A stretch of DNA of 64,000 nucleotides from a virus (lineage: Duplodnaviria; Caudoviricetes): IMG/VR virus record IMGVR_UViG_3300014204_000111, positions 32,001 through 96,000 of that record; one strand, written 5' to 3'. The position numbers and the translations under genes are program-made. Of the stretch, positions 2,932-47,929 are shown piece by piece. Below the pieces are notes generated by a model that was given only the letters and a program-made list of their open reading frames with translations, was not told where the DNA came from and did no database searches. Every line of letters starts with the position of its first letter. The first letter of the stretch is position 1.

Positions 2932-4126
2932 AGGTAATGTAGCAGAAATTTTAAAACAACATTTAGAAGATATTAAAACCCCAAAACCAAGAATTATGAC
3001 TGGATATAAGGATTTAGATGACGCATTAAAGGGGATTCGTCCATCAGATTTTGCAATTATAGCTGGAGGAACTGGAGAGTTTAAAAGTACGCTATCTACT
3101 AATGTACTTTTAGCAAATTTGAAACAAGGTCATTCTGCTGTAATGTATAATTATGAAATGTCTAATCTTCAATCTTTTCGAAGAATATTATGTGGAGAGA
3201 TGTTAACATCACTTTCAGATTTGGAAGACCCGAATCAATCGAAAGAGTTAATTAAGGCCACAGAAGAAAAAGCAGCAGAATTAGTGAAAAGTAATCTATA
3301 TTTTGTTGAAAACAATATTGATAACGTAGATATGTTACTTCTTGATATTGCTAGAAAAAAACAGGAAGGTTTTAATCTTTTTATTGTAGATTATATTCAA
3401 TTAATTAATAGTGACAAAGGCTCAAGAGTAGAACAAATAGAATATGTAGCTAGAAAGCTAAGGAAAGCTGCATTATCAACAGATACAGTAGTATTAGGAA
3501 TTTCTCAATTATCTCGCGCTCACAAAAGAGAAGGAGGGGAGCCGGATTTACATGACCTTAAAGGTTCCGGTGGTTTAGAGAATGATGCTACTCAAGTAAT
3601 TTTTGTTTTTACAAAAAGATATAATGAAATTTTGAGAGCTAAAGGCATTACTAAAGCATATCTTCCTTCCTATAGAGAATCAGAGCTTGTTATTAAAAAG
3701 AATCGTCACGGAGAATCAGGTCGTCGTTCTCGATGTATTGTACTTCCGTCTTATTATAAATTTATTAATATAGAAGATACAGTGGGAGTAGACCCATCTA
3801 AAATTGGGCCATTTCCTTGTATTGGAGATGAAGGTAGATGTAATGAGGAAGAATTTATAATAATAGGTAATGAATTTTATTGCGCTCATTGTAAAAGTAG
3901 GTATAATACTCAGTGTTCTCGTTGTAATGATACTGGATATGTAAGATATACTAAAATGAGCCATAATTATGATTATGAGTATATTGGATTTTGTCCATCT
4001 TGTCCTAGAGGTCAAGCCTTAGTAAGTAGTATTAAAGCGACTAATAGTATTCTCGATACTCCACAAGATAAAATTACTCTTTTACCATTTATTAAACAGG
4101 TTACTCCACAGGAAGTTTCTGTGTAA
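2924..4126 (+). CDS. dnaB: DnaB-like replicative helicase with Cys-rich C-terminal extension
   Basis: Walker A variant AGGTGEFKS, IVDYIQL, SQLSR, DLKGSGGLENDA, KNRHG. Confidence 0.9.
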   Translation: MAKGNVAEILKQHLEDIKTPKPRIMTGYKDLDDALKGIRPSDFAIIAGGTGEFKSTLSTNVLLANLKQGHSAVMYNYEMSNLQSFRRILCGEMLTSLSDLEDPNQSKELIKATEEKAAELVKSNLYFVENNIDNVDMLLLDIARKKQEGFNLFIVDYIQLINSDKGSRVEQIEYVARKLRKAALSTDTVVLGISQLSRAHKREGGEPDLHDLKGSGGLENDATQVIFVFTKRYNEILRAKGITKAYLPSYRESELVIKKNRHGESGRRSRCIVLPSYYKFINIEDTVGVDPSKIGPFPCIGDEGRCNEEEFIIIGNEFYCAHCKSRYNTQCSRCNDTGYVRYTKMSHNYDYEYIGFCPSCPRGQALVSSIKATNSILDTPQDKITLLPFIKQVTPQEVSV

Positions 4127-4680
4127 TGAAAATATATAAAGATTTTAGTTATGCTGATAGGGTTGGATATTATAAGTTTTTAGCAAATTATCCAGAAAAA
4201 ATAGCCAATTACGAACTTCAACCATTTAATTCTATTTATAGAAGAATAGAAGAATTTGCAGATAGTGATTATAATAGGGGATTTTGGGTATCTTCTCCAA
4301 ATCCCATTAATACAGGTTCGCTCTTAATTCCTCTTGCTATTAAATTAGGAATTACTTATGTTAATATATTAAATTTAACATCTAAAGATGTAGAAGAAAC
4401 AATGGAGATAGTTAGGAATACAGAGCTTATTATAGATGAAATAGGTAGCGAAGGCCAAAGAATGACTTGGTTAGTTGATAAGATTATGCAAGAACGATAT
4501 TCTAATGGTCTTATCACTTTCATTGGGTCTACTCGTCCATTTAGACAACTTAATAATACTTATAATGCAGCAACCTTATCTAAAATGGATAGTATGACTT
4601 GTTTTCGCGTAGATATAGAAACATTTGATATGTTTCCTTCTATGGATTCTAGTAAAAATATAATTTTAACGGAGAAATAA
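4126..4680 (+). CDS. Degenerate DnaC/IstB-like helicase loader
   Basis: LIIDEIGSE...IMQERY...TFIGS; follows dnaB; Walker A degenerate. Confidence 0.5.
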   Translation: MKIYKDFSYADRVGYYKFLANYPEKIANYELQPFNSIYRRIEEFADSDYNRGFWVSSPNPINTGSLLIPLAIKLGITYVNILNLTSKDVEETMEIVRNTELIIDEIGSEGQRMTWLVDKIMQERYSNGLITFIGSTRPFRQLNNTYNAATLSKMDSMTCFRVDIETFDMFPSMDSSKNIILTEK

Positions 4681-4990
4681 ATGATTAATTGTATTGAAGA
4701 AATTGACCAACGAAATAACCTTGGTTCGGGTATGTTTCTTTGGGCTAAAGAAAAAAAACTTGATGTAATGATTACTGTTAAAAGTCTTCCTTATAGTCTT
4801 AATCTCTTTCCTAAAGATGAGCATGGAGAAGTAAAAAAGATGGAAACTCCATTAGATTATAATGTAGTAGGAGGAGTTATTGAAGAAGTTTTTGGATATA
4901 ACTCTGCTGATACTTGGCTTATGTTTAAATCTAATGAAGGTAGAATCTTTGCTCTTAACACCAAAGAAGTTGTAATGATATCATTCATGG

Positions 4991-6106
4991 ATGAGCCAGA
5001 TGCAAAATAAGATTTTAGCGGTAGGAGATATTCAAATCTGCCCTAAATCTTATGACCAAATTGATAAATTTCTTAACGAATATCTTTTAGATTATATTAC
5101 TAAAAATGATATAGACACTGTAATATTTCCTGGGGATTTATTTGAATATTCTAACTATACTAATAACTATGTGAGTAGTGCTTCTATAATAAAGCCGTAT
5201 TCAAAATTCTTTGACTCTTTATCTTGGGTTAATCCTAAACATCTTAATAATTTTGGTAAGAAAGTAACAGTTATTATTGTTGATGGTAATCATGATAAAA
5301 GCTATGGTAGTTTTGCAAATGCCAATGATATATTTATTGCAGAACATATTATACATTCTTCGAAGACAATTGAATTATATAAACCACCTAGTTTAACCTG
5401 TGGATTCATTCTGGTTCCGTGGTTGATGCCTCATGAATATACGTCTCGTAGTGAGGTACTTGATTATATTAAGTTCCTTGCCTTCCAGTGTAAGTCTGAG
5501 GGGCTTATTCCGATATTGGTCGGACACTTGCGAGTTGTAGATTTAGAGTCTAGTATAAAGATAAAAAAATCGGATTATAGTTTCACTTTTTCTTCTGAGG
5601 AACTAAACTCGTTAGGTATTGAATATGGTATTTTAGGCGATATTCATACAAAACAAAATGTGGTTAATAAAATAGATTATATTGGATGTATTAGGCAGAG
5701 AAATTTTGGTGAAGTTAATAATCCTAGTGTATTTAGAGTTATTACTATTACTAATCAAGTGATAACACATGATAAATATGAGGTATGTAATTTTTTCCCT
5801 GAATATCATACTCTTACTGTAGAATCAGAAGAAGCTTTAGAGAAATTATTAGAAGATAATCATTTTATAGACAGAGATTTTTACAGGATTGATGCTTTAT
5901 TTCCTACAGTTACTAAAAGTTTTCGTCCTAATGTGATTGTACGTTCAACTGTTAAATTAGCTACTAAAGAACTGTCTACTCCAACAAGAGTCCAAGATTT
6001 AGATGCTTCAAATTTAATTAAAATTTATAATGATTATACAAAAGAATTTGATGACTTAGAAAAAATAATGAAATATTGGAACGACACTAATGATACAACA
6101 AGTTAA
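4991..6106 (+). CDS. sbcD: SbcD/Mre11-like nuclease
   Basis: GDIQ, GDLFE, GNHD, LGDIH motifs; next to SbcC. Confidence 0.85.
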   Translation: MSQMQNKILAVGDIQICPKSYDQIDKFLNEYLLDYITKNDIDTVIFPGDLFEYSNYTNNYVSSASIIKPYSKFFDSLSWVNPKHLNNFGKKVTVIIVDGNHDKSYGSFANANDIFIAEHIIHSSKTIELYKPPSLTCGFILVPWLMPHEYTSRSEVLDYIKFLAFQCKSEGLIPILVGHLRVVDLESSIKIKKSDYSFTFSSEELNSLGIEYGILGDIHTKQNVVNKIDYIGCIRQRNFGEVNNPSVFRVITITNQVITHDKYEVCNFFPEYHTLTVESEEALEKLLEDNHFIDRDFYRIDALFPTVTKSFRPNVIVRSTVKLATKELSTPTRVQDLDASNLIKIYNDYTKEFDDLEKIMKYWNDTNDTTS

Positions 6107-23675: not shown

Positions 23676-26160
23676 AATGTTATTTGGTATTTATGAGATT
23701 GAGTATCCTGATGAGGGTCATATAATCATAGAGGCTGAATCAGAGGATGAAGCCAAACAAAAATATAACGAACATACTGGTACGCCAATGGAATTTGATA
23801 TGTTAGGTATTTTTGATGTTTGTCAAAGTTGCGGACAAGCAATATTACCCGACGAAGATTAATGTATTCTAAGACGGAGATAAGTAATGGAACATTTGGA
23901 ATATAATGTATTTTATTCAGGGACAAATCTTTTAACCGCACTTGATTATCTTAATAATATTGCGACTAAAGAGGGTTGGGAATTGGTTAGTGTTGCTGGT
24001 GATTATAGTAATGGGTATGTATTATTTTTAAAGAGGGTCATTAAAAATGAATCTATAGCAAAACCCACGGAGGTTGAATCGTGCTAATTAATACAATTAA
24101 GACACTTTTTATTGTGTTGATATTATTTTTATCAGTATCTTGCGTTCCTGACACAGAATATAAACCAAATCCTACTGAAACAGTCTTGGTGTTGTCCAAA
24201 ACTATTGCAGGAGATAGTTTTAGCGGGCATATGTACATAGTGGAAACAGATAAAGGAACATGTTTAGCTGGTGATGGAGGATGGGCATATCCTAAGATGA
24301 CAATAGGAAATAGTTACAATATCAGATATACAATGTATAACGGATATAAGTATGTCCTTAGCATAGATGAAACATTAGTAAATGAAACAAGTCAACGAGG
24401 TGCAAAATGCAAGTAATTTGTAAGGTATGTCATGGCAGAGGTCGTGTGGGTGGGACGGGAAATCCTATTGAAACAGCATTCCTAAGAGGTATGACAGAAT
24501 TACTTACAGGGGGAATGAGTAAAATTCCAGCAGATATTGATGGTAGTATCGAGTGTGATGCGTGTCACGGTACTGGTACAATTGAATCTTTTAAGCGTAG
24601 TTTAGTTCAAAAACTAAAAGATGCTTGGTATCAACTTATTAATCCATAAAGAGGTAATATAATGAATGTTATAATTTATTCGTATACAGATGATGATTGG
24701 GAAGAGCGCCAACAAATGCATATTGATGGCAAATTCGTAATGAGTGTTGGCGGTGGAGAACCTGAAGATATGAGAATTGGCAGGGATTTAGTTCCTTGTC
24801 AAGAAATTGCTTCGTTTATGAAGAAGGCTTTTGATGCAGCTAAGAATGGAGAAGAATTTACTCTTGAAGTTAAAGAGTGTACTGAGGATGAGTGGGATGA
24901 GTTGTAAAAAGAATAGTAAAGAAAAGAATAGTAAAGTAAAGAAGTGGAGAAGTTATTCTTATCAATTATTATTTTGGTATCCTACATGTTATCAGTTAAA
25001 ACTTTACATAAATGAAGAATTAGCTATTCCGGTAGGATTTGTCCAGAGAAGTAGAACAAAATGGTTTGGTGCAGAAGATGGTCATCAAATTGACAACCTT
25101 ATATATGGCAAAACAAAACATGAAGTAGCTAAACAAATCTTAGAAAGATATTATTTTGAACCTGATAAATGGAAGTAGATAAATGTCACCAATTTTAATT
25201 ATAGGTTTTTCTATTGCATCTTATTTTTTCTTAAAGGCTCTTTATTCTTATATTAGATATAAGCGAGGAGAAAAAGAATATCAGAAATTAATAGACAAGA
25301 ATCATTATGAGAATACTAAAGCAGCACTAGGTGAATATGGAGTTGATTATACTCCAGAACAAGCAAAAGAGACAATGGATATAATAAGGTCTGTTGTAAA
25401 TAAAAATTACAACAGAAAACTACAAGGCAAAAAGCCACAAGTTGCTTATTCTCAGAGAGTGGTTGAGAATCCAGATGGAACCAAGAGATATCAAATTTTG
25501 GCAAATGGAGAAGTTCACGGAGAAGTTTTCGGTGTTACTTTTAAAGATACTCAGTTAATTAAAGATTAGGAGAAAGTTATGTATAAACAAAAAACTGTAA
25601 CAATTACTTGTCCAAATTGCGGTCAAACCAGAACAGTACCAGAATCAGATATGAGAGTTCATGCAGATTGGGAAGATGGTGGTTATTGTAGCGAAGAATG
25701 TTCTAAGGCATCACGAGGAGATTACCATCGAATATTATGGAATGTTGGTAAATGGGTAGAGAATTTATGGAAATGGAGAGGATAAGACAAAGACTCTTTA
25801 TCTTAGGAGAAAAATGAAATATTTAATTAGTTTAATTGTTGTGTTGTTGTGAGGGAGATAAAGAGAGAAGATGGAGATATGAAAACAATTAATTTAGATG
25901 ATTATAAAGATTTTGATATTTTAAGTTCGTGGTATGAATTAACCAAACAATTTGAAATGTTAGAAGGGCGTTTGAGGTTAGAAGGTTTTTCAGAGGATGA
26001 TTATTTGGATTTGACCACTCACGAAATGGTGGATTTATTATACAATCATCTAAAGGAACAACATCGTAAGACTCCAGAAGGAAGAGAAACACTTCGACAA
26101 CACGAAGAATATATGAAAGTTCATTATCCAGAAGACTCTTAATTATGGGTAAAATAACTA

Positions 26161-26230
26161 TGGAAATGTGATGAAACAAAACTTGCTATCTCGACGGCTC
26201 CAGCGCCCTTCATCAGGCTTCCACTGGAGC
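26161..26230 (+). ncRNA. Pseudoknotted leader RNA of HNH gene (copy A)
   Basis: TGGAA/TTCCA, TGATGAA/TTCATCA, GCTCCAG/CTGGAGC; homologue at 46640-46705. Confidence 0.75.
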
Positions 26231-26249
26231 TTATTTTTTTATTGGAGAA

Positions 26250-26753
26250 ATGATGGAAACTAAAGTGTGTAGCGTGTGTAAAAGAGCCTTGCCTTTTGAT
26301 AGATTTGGCCCAGATAAAAGAAATAAAACTTATGGTTTAAGATGTGAGTGTAAAGATTGTAGAAAAGATTACTATAATTTACACAGAGATAAGTTAAATG
26401 AACAACATAGAGCTTATAGAATTAATAATCCAGAACTTTATGGTGCATATCGTATTAAAGCAATACACAGATATTTTGTTATAAAACATAAACAAATTCT
26501 TCATTTAGGCGGAGAATGTCGTATATGTCACTTAAAATATAATATAGATAATCAATATATGTTTGCATTTCACCATTTAAATCCTGAAGAGAAAGATAAG
26601 ACGGTTAGTGACTATAAAGATTTTGAAGCCTCTTTGGTAGAAGTGAATAAGTGCGAATTATTATGTCACAATTGTCACAGTGGCTTGCACGCAACAAATA
26701 ATGAAATGTGCGTAAGAGATTTAAAAGAACAATTACTTGTCGATTTGAAGTAA
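26250..26753 (+). CDS. HNH homing endonuclease with N-terminal Zn finger
   Basis: CSVC...CKDC; CRIC, FHHLNP, LCHNCHSGLH. Confidence 0.88.
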   Translation: MMETKVCSVCKRALPFDRFGPDKRNKTYGLRCECKDCRKDYYNLHRDKLNEQHRAYRINNPELYGAYRIKAIHRYFVIKHKQILHLGGECRICHLKYNIDNQYMFAFHHLNPEEKDKTVSDYKDFEASLVEVNKCELLCHNCHSGLHATNNEMCVRDLKEQLLVDLK

Positions 26754-28697
26754 TTCTTCTATAGAGGCTCTTTTTTGTCTAGTTAAACCGTTCATCATAT
26801 ACTGGAACTGAAAAGATTTAATGAGGGAAGGATTTATTCCTCCCTCTTTACCTTCAATATAGGTTTGTCCGTATTTATCTATGTTGGCTTGTTTACGAGC
26901 CTCAAAACTTTCCATACCTGCTTGTGTTTTTAAGAAACCTGCTTGCTCTGCACCTTTTTTACTATAATGGGTTTGATGTGGCAAAGGTGGTTTATCTTCT
27001 AATGGTTCTGGTTCTGAGCCGCCCAGGAAAGGATGACCGGCAAAGCTGGTCACGTTCTTTACATCTCTTGTTTTGTTTAAATTTAAACATCTTAAACATC
27101 CAGCGCAACTATGAGGATTTCCATCATCGCTCTCTTCACCTGTTCCCATATCCTTTCCTCCACGACAAGGAGAAATCATAAAACCTTGGTTTCCATTCTG
27201 TAGTCTTTGAATAAGAGCTAGTTTTTGGGAATGTTCTGGTCTACCATTAATAGATTGAGCGAACTTAGAGATGTATTCTTCATCTTGAAGAGGAAAATGC
27301 GTATATTCTAAATTAGTATTTTTTAATCTAGCATCTTTATTATGTCTTAATCCGTGTTGGACGGCAATACCAGTAGCTCCAGCATTAAGAGCAGAATGAA
27401 TGGCGTGTGCTTCTGGTTCAGTCATATCTTCGAATCTAGGAGCAGAAATTTGCATTGAAACATTAGGTAAAGAGAAAAGACCACTTAATTCATGCATGTA
27501 GTTTTTATCTAATTCATCTACAACAGGAATACCAGTAGATTTAGTTAGAGGAACTTTAGTGTATCCCCAAACATTAACTAATGGTTTTCCATCTTTTCCT
27601 ACTTGAGAGAAGGCATTTTTTAAACCAGCTAAGTGTCTTGTTGAAATTTCTTTGATAGTATTTAAGTTAATAGAACCGTCAGGATTATAAACTTGTACTC
27701 CTCTTTGTTGTAAACCTTTCATTAATTCATCATCAAAAGGCATAGAATTACCAGTAGCTATTTTTTGAGGGTCAAGTAAAAATCTATGTCCCATAAGTAA
27801 ATCACCAGAAGGATGAAGTCTCATATTTCTTTCGCCCGTTTTAGCAACATATGTTTGAAGCTCTTTACCTAATCTTGGCCCAAATCCAGCGGTTAAAGAG
27901 GCATAGAAGTTCTTCATTCCTGATTGAGTTGCTGTAGGTTTAGCTAAAGCTCCTAATTCAGCAAAACATCCTCTACACATTCCAGGTCTTTCACAATCAT
28001 GTCCAGAGCAAGTAGCAGCGTTAATTTGAGGAGTAATACTTAGGCTTGAAGGGAATATACCTACTTGAGGGTCAAATCCATGTTCTTCTACTGTTCCCCA
28101 TCTTTGTCCAAATGCTTGTATATTTTGTTTCTGGGCAGTATCTGCCATATTATAGACTTGTTTTGTTTGTTCTGGAGTTAAATTAATAGAATTATAAGAA
28201 GTTGATTTACCTCTACCTGTTTTATATCCTTTAAACATTTGGGGAAAGTAATCTACCATTCTTTTAATTAAGTCTTTGCTACTCTTAGTGTCTCCTTCTA
28301 ATTGTAAACCATTTGGAGAGTTTTTGATTAGGTTCTTTATCTTTGTATAATCATTAATTTGTTGTTTAGTAGCCATATAAGGAGCTAATTCTCTCATAAG
28401 TTGATTTTCTAAGCCTGCATCTGTAATGGGATTACCAGCATTATCTTTTCCAGAAAGAGCCGCTATAATCATTTGTTTATGTTGACCCCAATTTGGAGTT
28501 GTTAAAAGACGAGCAGCGCCAGATAAGTTTACAACTCTACCAATCTTACTATTGCCAGCTTGAGTTAAACTACCAGCACGGTTAGTTTCTTTAATAACTA
28601 AGTTATGAAGTGTCTGAGCTTCTACATTAGGATTCTTTTTGGTAGAGACACCTTTGAAGAATTCAAATGATTCAAAAATTTTATCTGGATTTAACAA
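26733..28697 (-). CDS. Large Gp88-like Cys-rich (Fe-S) protein
   Basis: TCSGHDC...CRGCFA, RLHPSGD, WGYTK, C...CAGCLRC. Confidence 0.6.
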   Translation of the reverse strand: MLNPDKIFESFEFFKGVSTKKNPNVEAQTLHNLVIKETNRAGSLTQAGNSKIGRVVNLSGAARLLTTPNWGQHKQMIIAALSGKDNAGNPITDAGLENQLMRELAPYMATKQQINDYTKIKNLIKNSPNGLQLEGDTKSSKDLIKRMVDYFPQMFKGYKTGRGKSTSYNSINLTPEQTKQVYNMADTAQKQNIQAFGQRWGTVEEHGFDPQVGIFPSSLSITPQINAATCSGHDCERPGMCRGCFAELGALAKPTATQSGMKNFYASLTAGFGPRLGKELQTYVAKTGERNMRLHPSGDLLMGHRFLLDPQKIATGNSMPFDDELMKGLQQRGVQVYNPDGSINLNTIKEISTRHLAGLKNAFSQVGKDGKPLVNVWGYTKVPLTKSTGIPVVDELDKNYMHELSGLFSLPNVSMQISAPRFEDMTEPEAHAIHSALNAGATGIAVQHGLRHNKDARLKNTNLEYTHFPLQDEEYISKFAQSINGRPEHSQKLALIQRLQNGNQGFMISPCRGGKDMGTGEESDDGNPHSCAGCLRCLNLNKTRDVKNVTSFAGHPFLGGSEPEPLEDKPPLPHQTHYSKKGAEQAGFLKTQAGMESFEARKQANIDKYGQTYIEGKEGGINPSLIKSFQFQYMMNGLTRQKRASIEELLQIDK

Positions 28698-33720: not shown

Positions 33721-33749
33721 GTTTAAAATCTCGTAGCAATGGGTATAAT
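33721..33749 (+). promoter_or_regulatory. Phage promoter (SigB-like)
   Basis: GTTTAA-N14-GGGTATAAT. Confidence 0.75.
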
Positions 33750-33847: not shown

Positions 33848-33887
33848 TTTTAAATATTGGCAGAAGTCAAAATATATGGGTAAAATA

Positions 33888-33918
33888 GTTGTATGTTATA
33901 TTTTAAGGAACATACAAC
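33888..33918 (+). promoter_or_regulatory. 10-bp hairpin over the HNH translation start region
   Basis: GTTGTATGTT...AACATACAAC immediately before ATG 33919. Confidence 0.6.
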
Positions 33919-34629
33919 ATGGCTCAGAAAAGGACTTGGACTGACGAACAATTGACAGAGATTGTTAAATCTTCTATTTCAATTGCAGAGGTAACATTAA
34001 AATTAGGCTTGGTTATTGCTGGTGGAAGTGCTGCTTTGATTAAAAATCATATTAAAAGACTACAATTAGATATATCTCATTTTCATCGTAAGCAATGTTG
34101 TTCGGATGAATCATTAAAACAATTACATTTAAAACAGACATTTCCTATAGAGTCTATATTAATCAAAAATTCGACCTATAAGCATACTTCTACTTTAAGA
34201 CTAAGATTAATCAAAGAAGGACTTAAGGTTTATCAATGTGAGAATTGTCATTTGGAAGAGTGGTTAGAAGAACCAATTCCATTGCAATTGCATCATATTA
34301 ATGGGATTAGGGATGATAACAGAATTGAAAATCTTCAATTGTTGTGTCCTAATTGTCATGCTAAGACTGATACATATTGTGGTAAGAATGTCAACAAAGG
34401 TGTTAGAAAGGTCAGAGAAAAGAAGATTATAGAATCTAATAGTCTAAGACAAGTATCTATTGAAAAATTTCAAAGAATATTACCCGATGAAGTAATTTTA
34501 AAGAAATTATTATATAAAGGATTGTCTTGTACACAGATTGGATTTCTTTTTAATGTTACAGAAGCGGCAGTTAGAAAGTATTTAGGTAAATTAGGATTAT
34601 ATATTGCTGGTAAATATATAAGAAAGTAA
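33919..34629 (+). CDS. HNH endonuclease between tRNA-Leu genes
   Basis: CENC, LQLHHINGIRDDNRIENLQLLCPNCH. Confidence 0.9.
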   Translation: MAQKRTWTDEQLTEIVKSSISIAEVTLKLGLVIAGGSAALIKNHIKRLQLDISHFHRKQCCSDESLKQLHLKQTFPIESILIKNSTYKHTSTLRLRLIKEGLKVYQCENCHLEEWLEEPIPLQLHHINGIRDDNRIENLQLLCPNCHAKTDTYCGKNVNKGVRKVREKKIIESNSLRQVSIEKFQRILPDEVILKKLLYKGLSCTQIGFLFNVTEAAVRKYLGKLGLYIAGKYIRK

Positions 34630-44905: not shown

Positions 44906-45169
44906 ATGAAAAATAGAACACTTAGTATAAATAAAAAAAGAGAATTGAGAAAGTCTCATCCCTGTTGTTCTATTTGTGGATATAATAAATATCCTGAAAT
45001 TCTCGAAATTCATCATAATAATTTTAATCCTAGAGACAATATCCCAGAGAATCTTTTAGTTATATGTCCTACTTGTCATAAAGAAATTCACTATCAACAA
45101 GAAATAGAAGAAGGTATAAAAATTCTTAAAGAGAAAGATATTTTAGATAAAATTAAAGAGTTAGAATGA
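44906..45169 (+). CDS. Small HNH endonuclease
   Basis: CSICG, LEIHH, NIPENLLVICPTCHKEIH. Confidence 0.85.
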   Translation: MKNRTLSINKKRELRKSHPCCSICGYNKYPEILEIHHNNFNPRDNIPENLLVICPTCHKEIHYQQEIEEGIKILKEKDILDKIKELE

Positions 45170-46049: not shown

Positions 46050-46078
46050 GTTTCGTCGCTCTTCACCAGGGGTATAAT
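46050..46078 (+). promoter_or_regulatory. Phage promoter firing antisense into HNH gene
   Basis: GTTTCG-N14-GGGTATAAT. Confidence 0.6.
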
Positions 46079-46639: not shown

Positions 46640-46705
46640 GCCCCAGCGGACAGCCTGACGAAGGGCGAACTGAGGCATTCTACAATTGGATTTCGTCATT
46701 GTCCA
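46640..46705 (-). ncRNA. Pseudoknotted leader RNA of HNH gene (copy B)
   Basis: TGGACA/TGTCCG, TGACGAA/TTCGTCA, GCCTCAG/CTGGGGC. Confidence 0.75.
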
Positions 46706-46736
46706 GTTTATTTTACCCATATTTAACTGAAAAGAT

Positions 46737-46819: not shown

Positions 46820-47182
46820 ATGGCAAAATTTCGTGATGCTAATGGAAACATTGTTGAAGGCGTAGCAATTAACGAAGCATCGGATAAGAGGATTCAAGCA
46901 AAGTTGGCTTGTGGTCTATCACCTCGTGGGCGCTTAATGAAGATTCCGGCGGATGATAATCAGGTTGTCCTTTTCAATGCTTATTCAGAGGCTCTTGAGT
47001 CTTTGATTAGTTCCGAGGATGCTCTAACTGTATTGGGCAAGACTACAATTAATATGCTTAGGACTGCTAAAGATAACCTATCAAAAGGTGTCAATGCATA
47101 TCAACGCATGAAGAGTAATGGTCTTACTCTTGCTGATTTTGCTAAGCCTGCTCCTGTGGTAGAAACTTCCGAAGTAGGGTAA
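46820..47182 (+). CDS. Hypothetical protein
   Basis: 120-aa ORF with its own promoter. Confidence 0.65.
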   Translation: MAKFRDANGNIVEGVAINEASDKRIQAKLACGLSPRGRLMKIPADDNQVVLFNAYSEALESLISSEDALTVLGKTTINMLRTAKDNLSKGVNAYQRMKSNGLTLADFAKPAPVVETSEVG

Positions 47183-47190
47183 ATTAAATA

Positions 47191-47525
47191 ACTACGTCTT
47201 AATTGAAAGGTTAAGAATATCGCACAGGGCAGCCTGGGGTGGTAAAATAGCTTAGAGAAGTTAGATGCCGCCAAGAGTGTTACTTGGCGGTTTTTGCTCC
47301 TGTGTTTAGGAACCTGCGAAAGTGGGTAAAATAAGACTAACAGCACCCAGAAGGCTTAGTTAGTGTCTTGTAACGGACAACTATCCTAAGTGCTTAGGAA
47401 AGTTTCCCATACTAAATGCCGACCACCTGGGTCTTTTATCTCGATATATCTCAGAAATTCTGCTATGGTTGTTAACCCTCTTATAAGAGGGCAGAGTGGA
47501 TTGTAAATTATCGAGTTTTCGTAGT
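47191..47525 (+). ncRNA. Large structured RNA of unknown class
   Basis: Many helices, two GAAA tetraloops, long-range pseudoknot, paired ends; no long + strand ORF. Confidence 0.6.
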
Positions 47526-47595
47526 CTCTTAGTTTAGCAGCAGAAACATTGCCTTGTCACGGCAAAGATAGCGAGGGCAGCACTCGTAGGGACTG
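47523..47595 (+). tRNA. tRNA-Asp(GTC), atypical T loop
   Basis: ttgcc-ttGTCac-ggcaa; acceptor AGTCTCT/AGGGACT. Confidence 0.8.
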
Positions 47596-47649
47596 TTTTA
47601 TTTTTAAAATTTGTTCATTGAAAATTGTTTGCAAATTATTAATAACAAT

Positions 47650-47929
47650 GCCCAGGTGGTGAAATTGGCAAACACAAGGGACTTACATAAAATTGAGCGT
47701 ATATAAAGGAATTTATATATGGATGTCGCCTAATTCGGTGAAACCTAAGTCAAAAGATATGGCAATACCGAGCCAAACTCTAATAAGAGAAGTGTGTAGA
47801 GACTATACAGCGACCATCCAGAACGGATGAAGATAGAGTCCAGACCCCAAACTTAACAGGTAGAGAAATCTATGGTGGTATGAAAATCCCTCGGCTTCGG
47901 TCTTACGGGTTCGATTCCCGTCCTGGGCA
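47650..47929 (+). tRNA. tRNA-Leu(TAA) interrupted by group I intron
   Basis: Exons 47650-47684 and 47883-47929 join to aggga-ctTAAaa-tccct. Confidence 0.9.
47685..47882 (+). mobile_element. Group I intron (198 nt, no ORF)
   Basis: Inserted after U34, ends in G; core AATTCGGTGAAACC, GTAGAGACTA, AAGATAGAGTCC. Confidence 0.9.

Follow-up and report, generated by a model that had tools for sequence, protein, structure and literature searches.

In the pyrBI leader (pyrL) of Escherichia coli, a promoter-proximal leader places an intrinsic terminator immediately ahead of the structural gene; one short open reading frame (ORF) begins 5' of that terminator, crosses it and stops beside the gene start, and a trailing ribosome prevents the hairpin from forming. 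Loop pairing serves as an expression platform in guanidine-IV (mepA), in the cobalamin L5-L13 kissing loops and in the ColIb-P9 repY/repZ pseudoknot; in the last of these, leader-peptide translation controls pseudoknot formation ahead of a replication gene. The homing endonucleases of T-even phages are restrained in several layers, by late promoters, by hairpins that sequester the ribosome-binding site (RBS) and, for mobE and segF, by terminators (Edgell, Gibb and Belfort 2010, PMC2988022). Here we describe a leader RNA that stands 5' of two HNH endonuclease genes in a 64,000-nt window (bases 32001–96000) of the 220,861-bp virus record IMGVR_UViG_3300014204_000111. This leader is a real, conserved RNA element that is not catalogued in Rfam, and it is probably a cis-acting transcription attenuator that meters transcription into the next gene. 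The structural variant is new, and its kind, the attenuator leader, is already known.

Structure and relatives of the leader

The virus record has direct terminal repeats, a G+C content of 31.7%, at least 18 tRNA genes and one group I intron. No RNA data set is listed among the public runs that contain this DNA, and the one run with all of it is a landfill metagenome, possibly its source. The initial annotation of the window had reported two HNH genes on opposite strands with a common 5' unit, and both copies were recovered, copy A at 26145–26249 on the plus strand and copy B at 46720–46618 on the minus strand. Their parts follow in one order: the promoter-like motif ATGGGTAAAATA, the 5' strands of helices P1 and P2 (P1a and P2a), the loop L1, the 5' strand of a third helix (T5'), CGCCC, P2b, GGC, P1b and T3'. 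Downstream of T3', both copies continue with a U-rich tract, a Shine-Dalgarno sequence (SD) and the HNH gene. Across copies A and B, P1a measures 5–6 nt, P2a 7 nt (UGAYGAA), L1 15–20 nt and T5' 7–8 nt, and P2b reads UUCRUCA.

Three helices with compensated sequence differences had been proposed, and all of them are 100% paired in both copies. The third had been taken for a pseudoknot helix. It is a real helix and the leader is indeed pseudoknotted, but the U-tract directly 3' of this helix marks it as an intrinsic terminator stem. The minimum free energy (MFE) fold of both copies consists of T5':T3' and, across an internal loop, the 3-bp GCC:GGC helix, with the U-tract 3' of the stem. Copy A has an 8-bp stem and then UAUUUUUUUAUU, and copy B a 7-bp stem and then AAUUUUAUUUU, so that a G+C-rich stem is joined immediately to a U-tract, as in attenuators that work through an intrinsic terminator. 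The loop of the terminator hairpin is unusually large (20–23 nt); it contains P2b, P1b and the 3-bp GCC:GGC mini-helix, and it is complementary to the first ~15 nt of the predicted transcript, namely P1 and P2.

Further members were found by exact-pattern scans of the core that also satisfied P1, P2, the stem and the U-tract. These scans added four distinct members: L013 (a 37.4-kb viral contig, the same as L199), L172, L179 (identical in sequence to L194 and L258) and L211. The 15-nt core is identical between the 221-kb phage and the ~37-kb phages. The four additional members have terminator stems of 10–11 bp followed by UUUU(U), a sigma-70-type promoter (TTGACA, N17, TAGAAT or similar) upstream of the leader and a gene start 15–27 nt beyond the stem. 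Across the whole set, every downstream gene begins 12–27 nt past the terminator stem, which leaves no room for a second promoter. The leader thus lies between promoter and gene on the same strand, as an attenuator leader does, with the promoter assigned by motif statistics.

Linkage of the leader to nucleases is not exclusive. A DnaD-like helicase loader or O-like replication initiator lies downstream in L013 and L172, and in L179 a small ORF is followed by a gene that we read as an O-like replication gene. Three of the six homologues (L013, L172 and L179) therefore precede DnaD/O-like genes, and the leader is not nuclease-specific. In L211, the leader is followed by an HNH gene, a small ORF and, beyond these, a gene homologous to the L013 replication gene (43% identity); the order at 3086–5819 is endolysin-like amidase, promoter, leader, HNH gene, small ORF and replication gene. 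Because the L013 leader directly adjoins its replication gene, the HNH gene of L211 looks like an insertion between an ancestral, pre-existing leader and the replication gene. This arrangement suggests how a cassette of leader plus HNH gene could arise and then move.

Searches beyond these scans yielded little. Relaxed core patterns against IMG/VR gave no new member among the matches listed, and a covariance model (R1) recovered only the known copies in two whole virus records. Applied upstream of 15 homologues of the L013/L211 replication proteins and 80 homologues of the L172 loader, R1 found nothing significant, so sequence homologues appear to be rare. Neither megablast of window positions 25000–28000 nor tblastn of the neighbouring 654-aa ORF gave a match among 50,697 phage records. 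One GC-rich candidate (L074) fitted the descriptor loosely and was not counted. The leader had been said to resemble no known riboswitch or ribozyme, and in agreement with this Rfam 15 returned no match to it, either at gathering thresholds over the whole window or at E-values up to 10 for both copies, L172 and L194. Literature searches did not find a prior description of the element.

The pairing is supported by compensated changes. Parsed by hand, the six members show 100% pairing in every helix, and exchanging strands between members lowers pairing to 65% in P1 and to 63% in the stem of the terminator. P1 occurs in five sequence versions (UGGAA/UUCCA, UGGACA/UGUCCG, AACAAAA/UUUUGUU, UGGGA/UCUCA and UGAGU/ACUCA), and P2 shows one compensated change, from U-A to C-G. 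We also built a model-based alignment of the six members (A6), in which the counts cover P1, P2 and the mini-helix. In A6, 91.7% of cells were paired, against 19.8–42.7% when the partners were slid by 1–3 columns. Six pairs were altered on both sides, a number matched by 4 of 500 shuffles, and the covariation score (0.279 vs 0.135) was reached by none of 500; these counts are lowered because A6 misaligns P1 of copy B. MAFFT alignments misregistered P1 of copy B as well as the terminator stems of three members (A, B and L013), so covariation of the terminator rests on the manual parse.

A second pseudoknot helix between CGCCC and GGC, raised in the initial annotation, is plausible; the MFE fold of both copies contains GCC:GGC. 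With GCC paired to GGC, the continuous 3' strand P2b-GGC-P1b-T3' is paired throughout: 23 of 23 nt in copies A and B, and 26–27 of 28 nt in the four added members; over all the other leaders modelled, the paired stretch comes to 26–37 nt. Paired with this strand are, in turn, P2a, GCC, P1a (the RNA 5' end) and T5'. The linker from T5' to GCC lengthens with P1 over a range of 1–3 nt: it has 1 nt for a 5-bp P1 in copy A, 2 nt for 5 bp plus a bulge in the L172 group, and 3 nt for 6 bp in copy B and for 7 bp in L013. The connection from GCC to P2b is a single C, which spans the 7-bp P2. In classical H-type pseudoknots, linkers of 1–3 nt suit deep-groove crossing of a 5–7-bp helix; since the linker lengths fit such a crossing, the four helices could coexist. 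We infer that they form one coaxial rod, a double pseudoknot with L1 (15–20 nt) folded back along its length. Within this four-helix model, nearly every conserved base is Watson–Crick paired.

The same topology recurs in unrelated sequence. Homologues of the L013/L211 replication proteins were fetched from IMG/VR and their upstream regions inspected; several have a promoter, a structured leader and a terminator upstream. L442 has the exact layout, with P1 UAUGCAAC/GUUGCAUA, mini-helix GGCU/AGCC, P2 CACUAC/GUAGUG and P1b abutting T3'. L436 has the same layout, with P1 UAUGCAA/UUGCAUA, mini-helix ACACC/GGUGU and P2 CGACUAG/CUAGUCG. We scored duplex energies in place of the longest single run of complementarity, which was underpowered. 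Pairing of the 5' region with the terminator loop gave a duplex energy that beat 1000 shuffles at p ≤ 0.024 in 9 of 10 leaders (L437, p 0.089), and the two-helix complementarity of the sequence-unrelated L442, L436 and L438 reached p ≤ 0.002.

An alternative, small-loop terminator-like hairpin can be drawn at 26215–26232 and 46652–46639, in which GGC and P1b pair with the 3' part of T3' (AGGCUUC/GGAGCUU in copy A, UGUCC/GGGCA in copy B). By eye, no counterpart was seen in L172 or L013.

The predicted start of the transcript comes from the promoter motif. The 12-mer at the head of the cassette is promoter-like and present in both copies, as first noticed; it is not private to the cassette but belongs to a genome-wide motif. 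GGGTA[AT]AAT occurs 61 times in the genome, against 7.7 copies expected from composition. Most copies (about 45) are GGGTATAAT, with a GTTTGAA-like box ~17 nt upstream, and many of these precede tRNAs and small genes. The GGGTAAAAT variant (16 copies) is without the GTTTGAA-like box and lies upstream of all three promoter-bearing HNH genes (A, B and the gene at 33876). ORFs of 47, 49, 202 and 659 codons start exactly 5 nt past TAAAAT at four GGGTAAAAT copies, which suggests leaderless mRNAs. Because these four ORFs begin there, transcripts of the TAAAAT class probably start ~6 nt past the hexamer (~26160–26162 for copy A), and the predicted transcript start of copies A and B is probably the first or second base of P1a. 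The promoters were assigned by motif statistics rather than by mapped 5' ends.

Example sites of the two promoter classes are window positions 33741, 53091, 58613 and 62832. Within copy B, at 46705–46677 on the minus strand, P1a (TGGACA) and TAGAAT in the loop form a 10/12 match to a sigma-70-like promoter with a 17-nt spacer; this internal match occurs only in copy B and may be due to chance, and its transcripts would be without the 5' strands. A GGGTATAAT promoter at window position 46070 on the plus strand is directed into HNH-B from the 3' end, so a plus-strand unit toward the ORF at 46820–47182 would run antisense across the entire HNH-B cassette.

Predicted attenuation and alternative readings

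We read the cassette as a self-contained expression unit made up of a phage promoter, a leader of ~85 nt, an intrinsic terminator, an RBS and a gene. In this unit, the knot would set the fraction of polymerases that stop at the U-tract, and with it the amount of HNH protein or, in the other phages, of replication protein. The helices are compatible and form one after another as they are synthesised, so the 5' pairing probably pre-organises the large-looped hairpin. In a read-through mRNA, the knot would bury the RNA 5' end, and a ribosome on the 5' strand would oppose the 5' pairing.

As to how termination might be modulated, we favour gating by a ribosome, a tentative proposal that could well be wrong and whose effect may run in either direction. 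If a ribosome boarded the nascent 5' end ahead of loop synthesis, it would keep the 5' strand from the loop, and the same ribosome would then melt the 5' strand of the terminator and allow read-through; without a ribosome, the knot would close and transcription would end. We put forward with still more reserve the idea of a widespread and so far undescribed class of phage "terminator knots", gated by ribosomes, in which the terminator loop pairs with the transcript's own 5' end and with the start codon, 5'-proximal or leaderless, that this end bears; transcription would then reach the gene only when a ribosome had loaded in time.

Several features of the leader bear on its possible translation. 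The AUG in P2a is kept in all six members (AUGAUG in the four added ones, GUGAUG in copy A and AUGACG in copy B), and the frame that it opens continues through the terminator in all six; L442 and L436 have a leader ORF of the same kind. The CGCCC core is read in three different phases among members, so it is conserved as RNA and not as peptide. In L179 and L442, the AUG lies exactly 6 nt past the -10 hexamer, where it would be a leaderless start, and in L436 it lies at 8 nt. The ORF ends within 9 nt of the gene start, or overlaps it, in L442, L436 and L013. The longest ATG-initiated ORF equals or beats dinucleotide shuffles in 8 of 10 leaders (p 0.021–0.11). Translation of the leader is possible on these grounds.

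A number of points weigh against attenuation and against its gating by a ribosome. Termination at the U-tract and its modulation are both predicted from sequence only. No mutually exclusive antiterminator helix was found, with P1/P2, the mini-helix and the terminator stem compatible on paper, so a switch is not evident from the sequence; coexistence of the four helices is in turn a steric argument only. The sample comprises only six sequence homologues from about four independent lineages. For four of the six, the invariance of CGCCC and GGC is circular, since the search pattern contained those bases; the mini-helix shows no variation in the family, which makes within-family counts uninformative about it. 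For the leader ORF the evidence is weak: p is ~0.09 for each of copies A and B, and L437 and L438 have no such ORF. The 5'-terminal AUG of copy A opens a frame of only three codons, whose UGA overlaps the next AUG. Third-position bias appears only in L1 (4 of 5 variable sites among three close relatives), and codon-position counts over the whole ORF (4, 9 and 8) show no bias.

Among the alternatives, the promoter-to-terminator unit could be a small RNA gene whose stable ~85-nt product acts in trans as a regulator, decoy or anti-defence RNA, the downstream gene being expressed only by leak-through. Its own promoter and terminator, a compact, fully paired fold with a sequestered 5' end and the 15-nt core shared by the 221-kb and ~37-kb phages would all suit such a gene. 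We nevertheless consider it unlikely: a gene on the same strand always follows the unit directly, its start 12–27 nt away and no promoter between them; the RNA shows no evident single-stranded seed that is conserved; and the loops have no target in the genome.

A sensor that decides whether the terminator functions, be it a small-molecule riboswitch or an operator bound by the HNH protein, the replication protein or a host factor, strikes us as improbable. Such a sensor would explain why the core is conserved in sequence beyond the needs of pairing, and it would find an expression platform in the terminator. However, no Rfam riboswitch aptamer model matches the leader, and nearly all conserved bases are paired in this small sample, which leaves no obvious pocket. 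The downstream genes also differ (HNH vs DnaD/O-like), so autoregulation by one protein, which had been among the first suggestions, does not suit the members ahead of replication genes, and here too the lack of a competing antiterminator counts against the idea.

It is very unlikely that the complementarity between the 5' strand and the loop has no function, P1 and P2 being inherited by descent while an ordinary leaky terminator limits a selfish gene. Terminators do limit mobE and segF of T4 (PMC2988022), and the known independent lineages number only about four. Against this stand the compensation of P1 across its five sequence versions and the recurrence of two-helix complementarity in the unrelated L442, L436 and L438 at the significance given above.

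The initial annotation had suggested an RNA-guided nuclease, with the leader as scaffold plus guide for the HNH protein, and we now hold this to be highly improbable. The leader does adjoin an HNH gene in three cases (A, B and L211), and the loops of A and B do differ, as had been observed. Calling the loop unrelated between copies does not extend to the relatives, whose loops share AAUUG(A)A and have a 3' half that pairs with the U-tract region. This half is complementary to the U-tract and the bases that follow in the L172 group, L013 and L442 (p ≤ 0.032), marginally so in copy B (p 0.067) and not in copy A or L436; pairing of this sort is the familiar A-tract extension of intrinsic terminators. 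Comparison of the loops with the full genome, which had been proposed as a check, gave nothing: L1 and its complement, on both strands of the 220,861-bp genome, had no match elsewhere beyond those of shuffled loops. The leader also precedes replication genes in L013, L172 and L179, and the four cultured-phage members of the protein family that were sampled are without it.

HEARO and omega-RNA, the partners of IscB and TnpB, are likewise structured RNAs beside an HNH-domain gene. They are several hundred nucleotides long, bear a guide, lie at transposon ends and serve large RuvC-containing proteins, whereas the present leader has ~85 nt and ends in a terminator that lies 5' of a small HNH ORF; its loops match no target in the genome, and it occurs before replication genes as well. 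No HEARO or omega-RNA model matched it. The proteins beside it, of 167 and 179 aa, are free-standing endonucleases of phrog_2255 with no Pfam match, unlike the RuvC-containing IscB and TnpB.

A small self-cleaving ribozyme, likewise mooted at first for this compact, doubly pseudoknotted RNA, can be set aside as equally improbable, given that no Rfam ribozyme model (HDV-like, twister, pistol, hammerhead or hatchet) matched at E-values up to 10, that the strand order P1a, P2a, T5', GCC, P2b, GGC, P1b, T3' is unlike the generally known HDV-like order, and that nearly every conserved base is Watson–Crick paired in the model, with almost no unpaired base conserved.

Coordinates of the cassettes and neighbouring elements

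Table 1. Features of the two leader-HNH cassettes, in window coordinates.
Feature	Start	End	Strand	Sequence or length	Remarks
Copy A promoter-like motif	26145	26156	+	ATGGGTAAAATA	-10 TAAAAT at 26150-26155; assigned by motif statistics
Copy A P1 5' strand	26161	26165	+	UGGAA	Predicted transcript 5' end; partner 26219-26223
Copy A P2 5' strand	26169	26175	+	UGAUGAA	Partner 26209-26215; AUG 26171-26173, GUG 26168-26170
Copy A loop L1	26176	26195	+	20 nt	"Variable loop" of the initial annotation
Copy A terminator stem 5' strand	26196	26203	+	GGCUCCAG	Partner 26224-26231
Copy A CGCCC	26204	26208	+	CGCCC	GCC 26205-26207 is the mini-helix 5' strand; flanking single Cs are linkers
Copy A P2 3' strand	26209	26215	+	UUCAUCA	Within the apical loop of the terminator hairpin
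Copy A GGC	26216	26218	+	GGC	Mini-helix 3' strand
Copy A P1 3' strand	26219	26223	+	UUCCA	
Copy A terminator stem 3' strand	26224	26231	+	CUGGAGCU	
Copy A U-tract	26232	26243	+		Followed by SD GGAGA 26244-26248
HNH-A gene	26250	26753	+	167 aa	phrog_2255, E 5.5e-22
Copy B promoter-like motif	46709	46720	-	ATGGGTAAAATA	
Copy B P1 5' strand	46700	46705	-	UGGACA	Partner 46647-46652
Copy B P2 5' strand	46692	46698	-	UGACGAA	AUG at 46699-46697
Copy B loop L1	46677	46691	-	15 nt	
Copy B terminator stem 5' strand	46670	46676	-	GCCUCAG	
Copy B UUCGCCC	46663	46669	-	UUCGCCC	UUC linker; GCC 46664-46666 is the mini-helix 5' strand; final C linker
Copy B P2 3' strand	46656	46662	-	UUCGUCA	One compensated pair vs copy A
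Copy B GGC	46653	46655	-	GGC	Mini-helix 3' strand
Copy B P1 3' strand	46647	46652	-	UGUCCG	
Copy B terminator stem 3' strand	46640	46646	-	CUGGGGC	
Copy B AA + U-rich tract	46629	46639	-		Followed by SD AGGA 46628-46625
HNH-B gene	46078	46617	-	179 aa	phrog_2255, E 1.4e-25

Both proteins had been recognised as HNH types, and each matches phrog_2255 "HNH endonuclease" (E-values in Table 1); by this family match, HNH-A and HNH-B are small free-standing HNH endonucleases. They share 37% identity across the HNH core, and a Pfam search of the two gave no match. HNH-A has three database relatives, of which one was inspected and is without such a leader. The HNH-B family is common in cultured phages; four homologues in cultured phages lie among tRNA genes, and the leader was not found there.

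Two more HNH reading frames occur in the window. The gene at 33876–34629 encodes 236 aa with Pfam HNH and HNH_3 matches and has the same ATGGGTAAAATA motif; its leader forms a 9-bp hairpin at the transcript start, with SD AAGGA in the loop and the start codon directly after the stem. A fourth, short ORF at 44906–45169 (87 aa) matches Pfam HNH with an E-value of 2.6e-4.

The group I intron lies at 47640–47862 (RF00028, 69.8 bits), just after the tRNA-like 5' half GCCCAGGTGGTGAAATTGG; this site may be a tRNA gene interrupted by the intron and missed by ARAGORN. Ahead of it, window positions 47322–47640 begin with GTGGGTAAAATA and continue with ~300 nt that have no plus-strand ORF and several hairpins, and a stem with a U-run near 47560–47605 closes the ORF-less stretch, which may be another non-coding RNA.

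Significance and comparison with described systems

If the attenuator reading holds, phages possess a compact, portable control module, composed of a promoter, an 85-nt knot and a terminator, that selfish HNH cassettes carry along and that small phages use at the entry to their replication genes. The predicted fold is unusual, a four-helix double pseudoknot in which the 3' strand is fully paired and the transcript 5' end completes a terminator hairpin, which recommends it for structural studies and for work on co-transcriptional folding. Through the module one could test how low doses of free-standing homing endonucleases are maintained in systems other than T4, and also whether ribosome availability is sensed by early phage genes. 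Should the ribosome-gated switch prove true, phage replication and homing-endonuclease genes would be coupled to the translational state of the host. The analysis also removes one candidate from the list of new RNA-guided nucleases.

In its logic, the leader appears closest to the pyrL attenuator. It resembles pyrL in having a terminator before the gene and a leader ORF, here putative, that runs through the terminator. It differs in that no UTP-sensing logic is evident, in its phage setting before replication and homing-endonuclease genes, and in an ORF start codon that lies in the strand pairing into the terminator loop; pyrL is also without the double pseudoknot.

With guanidine-IV, cobalamin L5-L13 and repY/repZ, the leader shares the long-range pairing of an upstream segment with the loop of a downstream hairpin, a pairing that in those systems settles what becomes of the transcript. 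Unlike them, it has no recognisable aptamer, the pairing partner is the 5' end itself, and the pseudoknot seems able to coexist with the terminator stem instead of replacing it. It is related to these three neither in sequence nor through Rfam.

In its biology, the closest parallel appears to be the multilayer restraint of T-even homing endonucleases (PMC2988022). As in those phages, a free-standing HNH gene has its own late-type promoter, and RNA structure together with a terminator would restrain its expression. The third HNH gene of the window (33876–34629) takes the classical T4-like form, with the SD inside a hairpin. Copies A and B do not: their SD lies outside the structure, 3' of the U-tract, with a weak 4-bp pairing in copy A only, and their terminator stands upstream of the ORF and not within it. 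What sets the leader apart from the T-even controls is that its terminator loop is predicted to be paired by the 5' end of the transcript and that it serves genes other than endonucleases as well.

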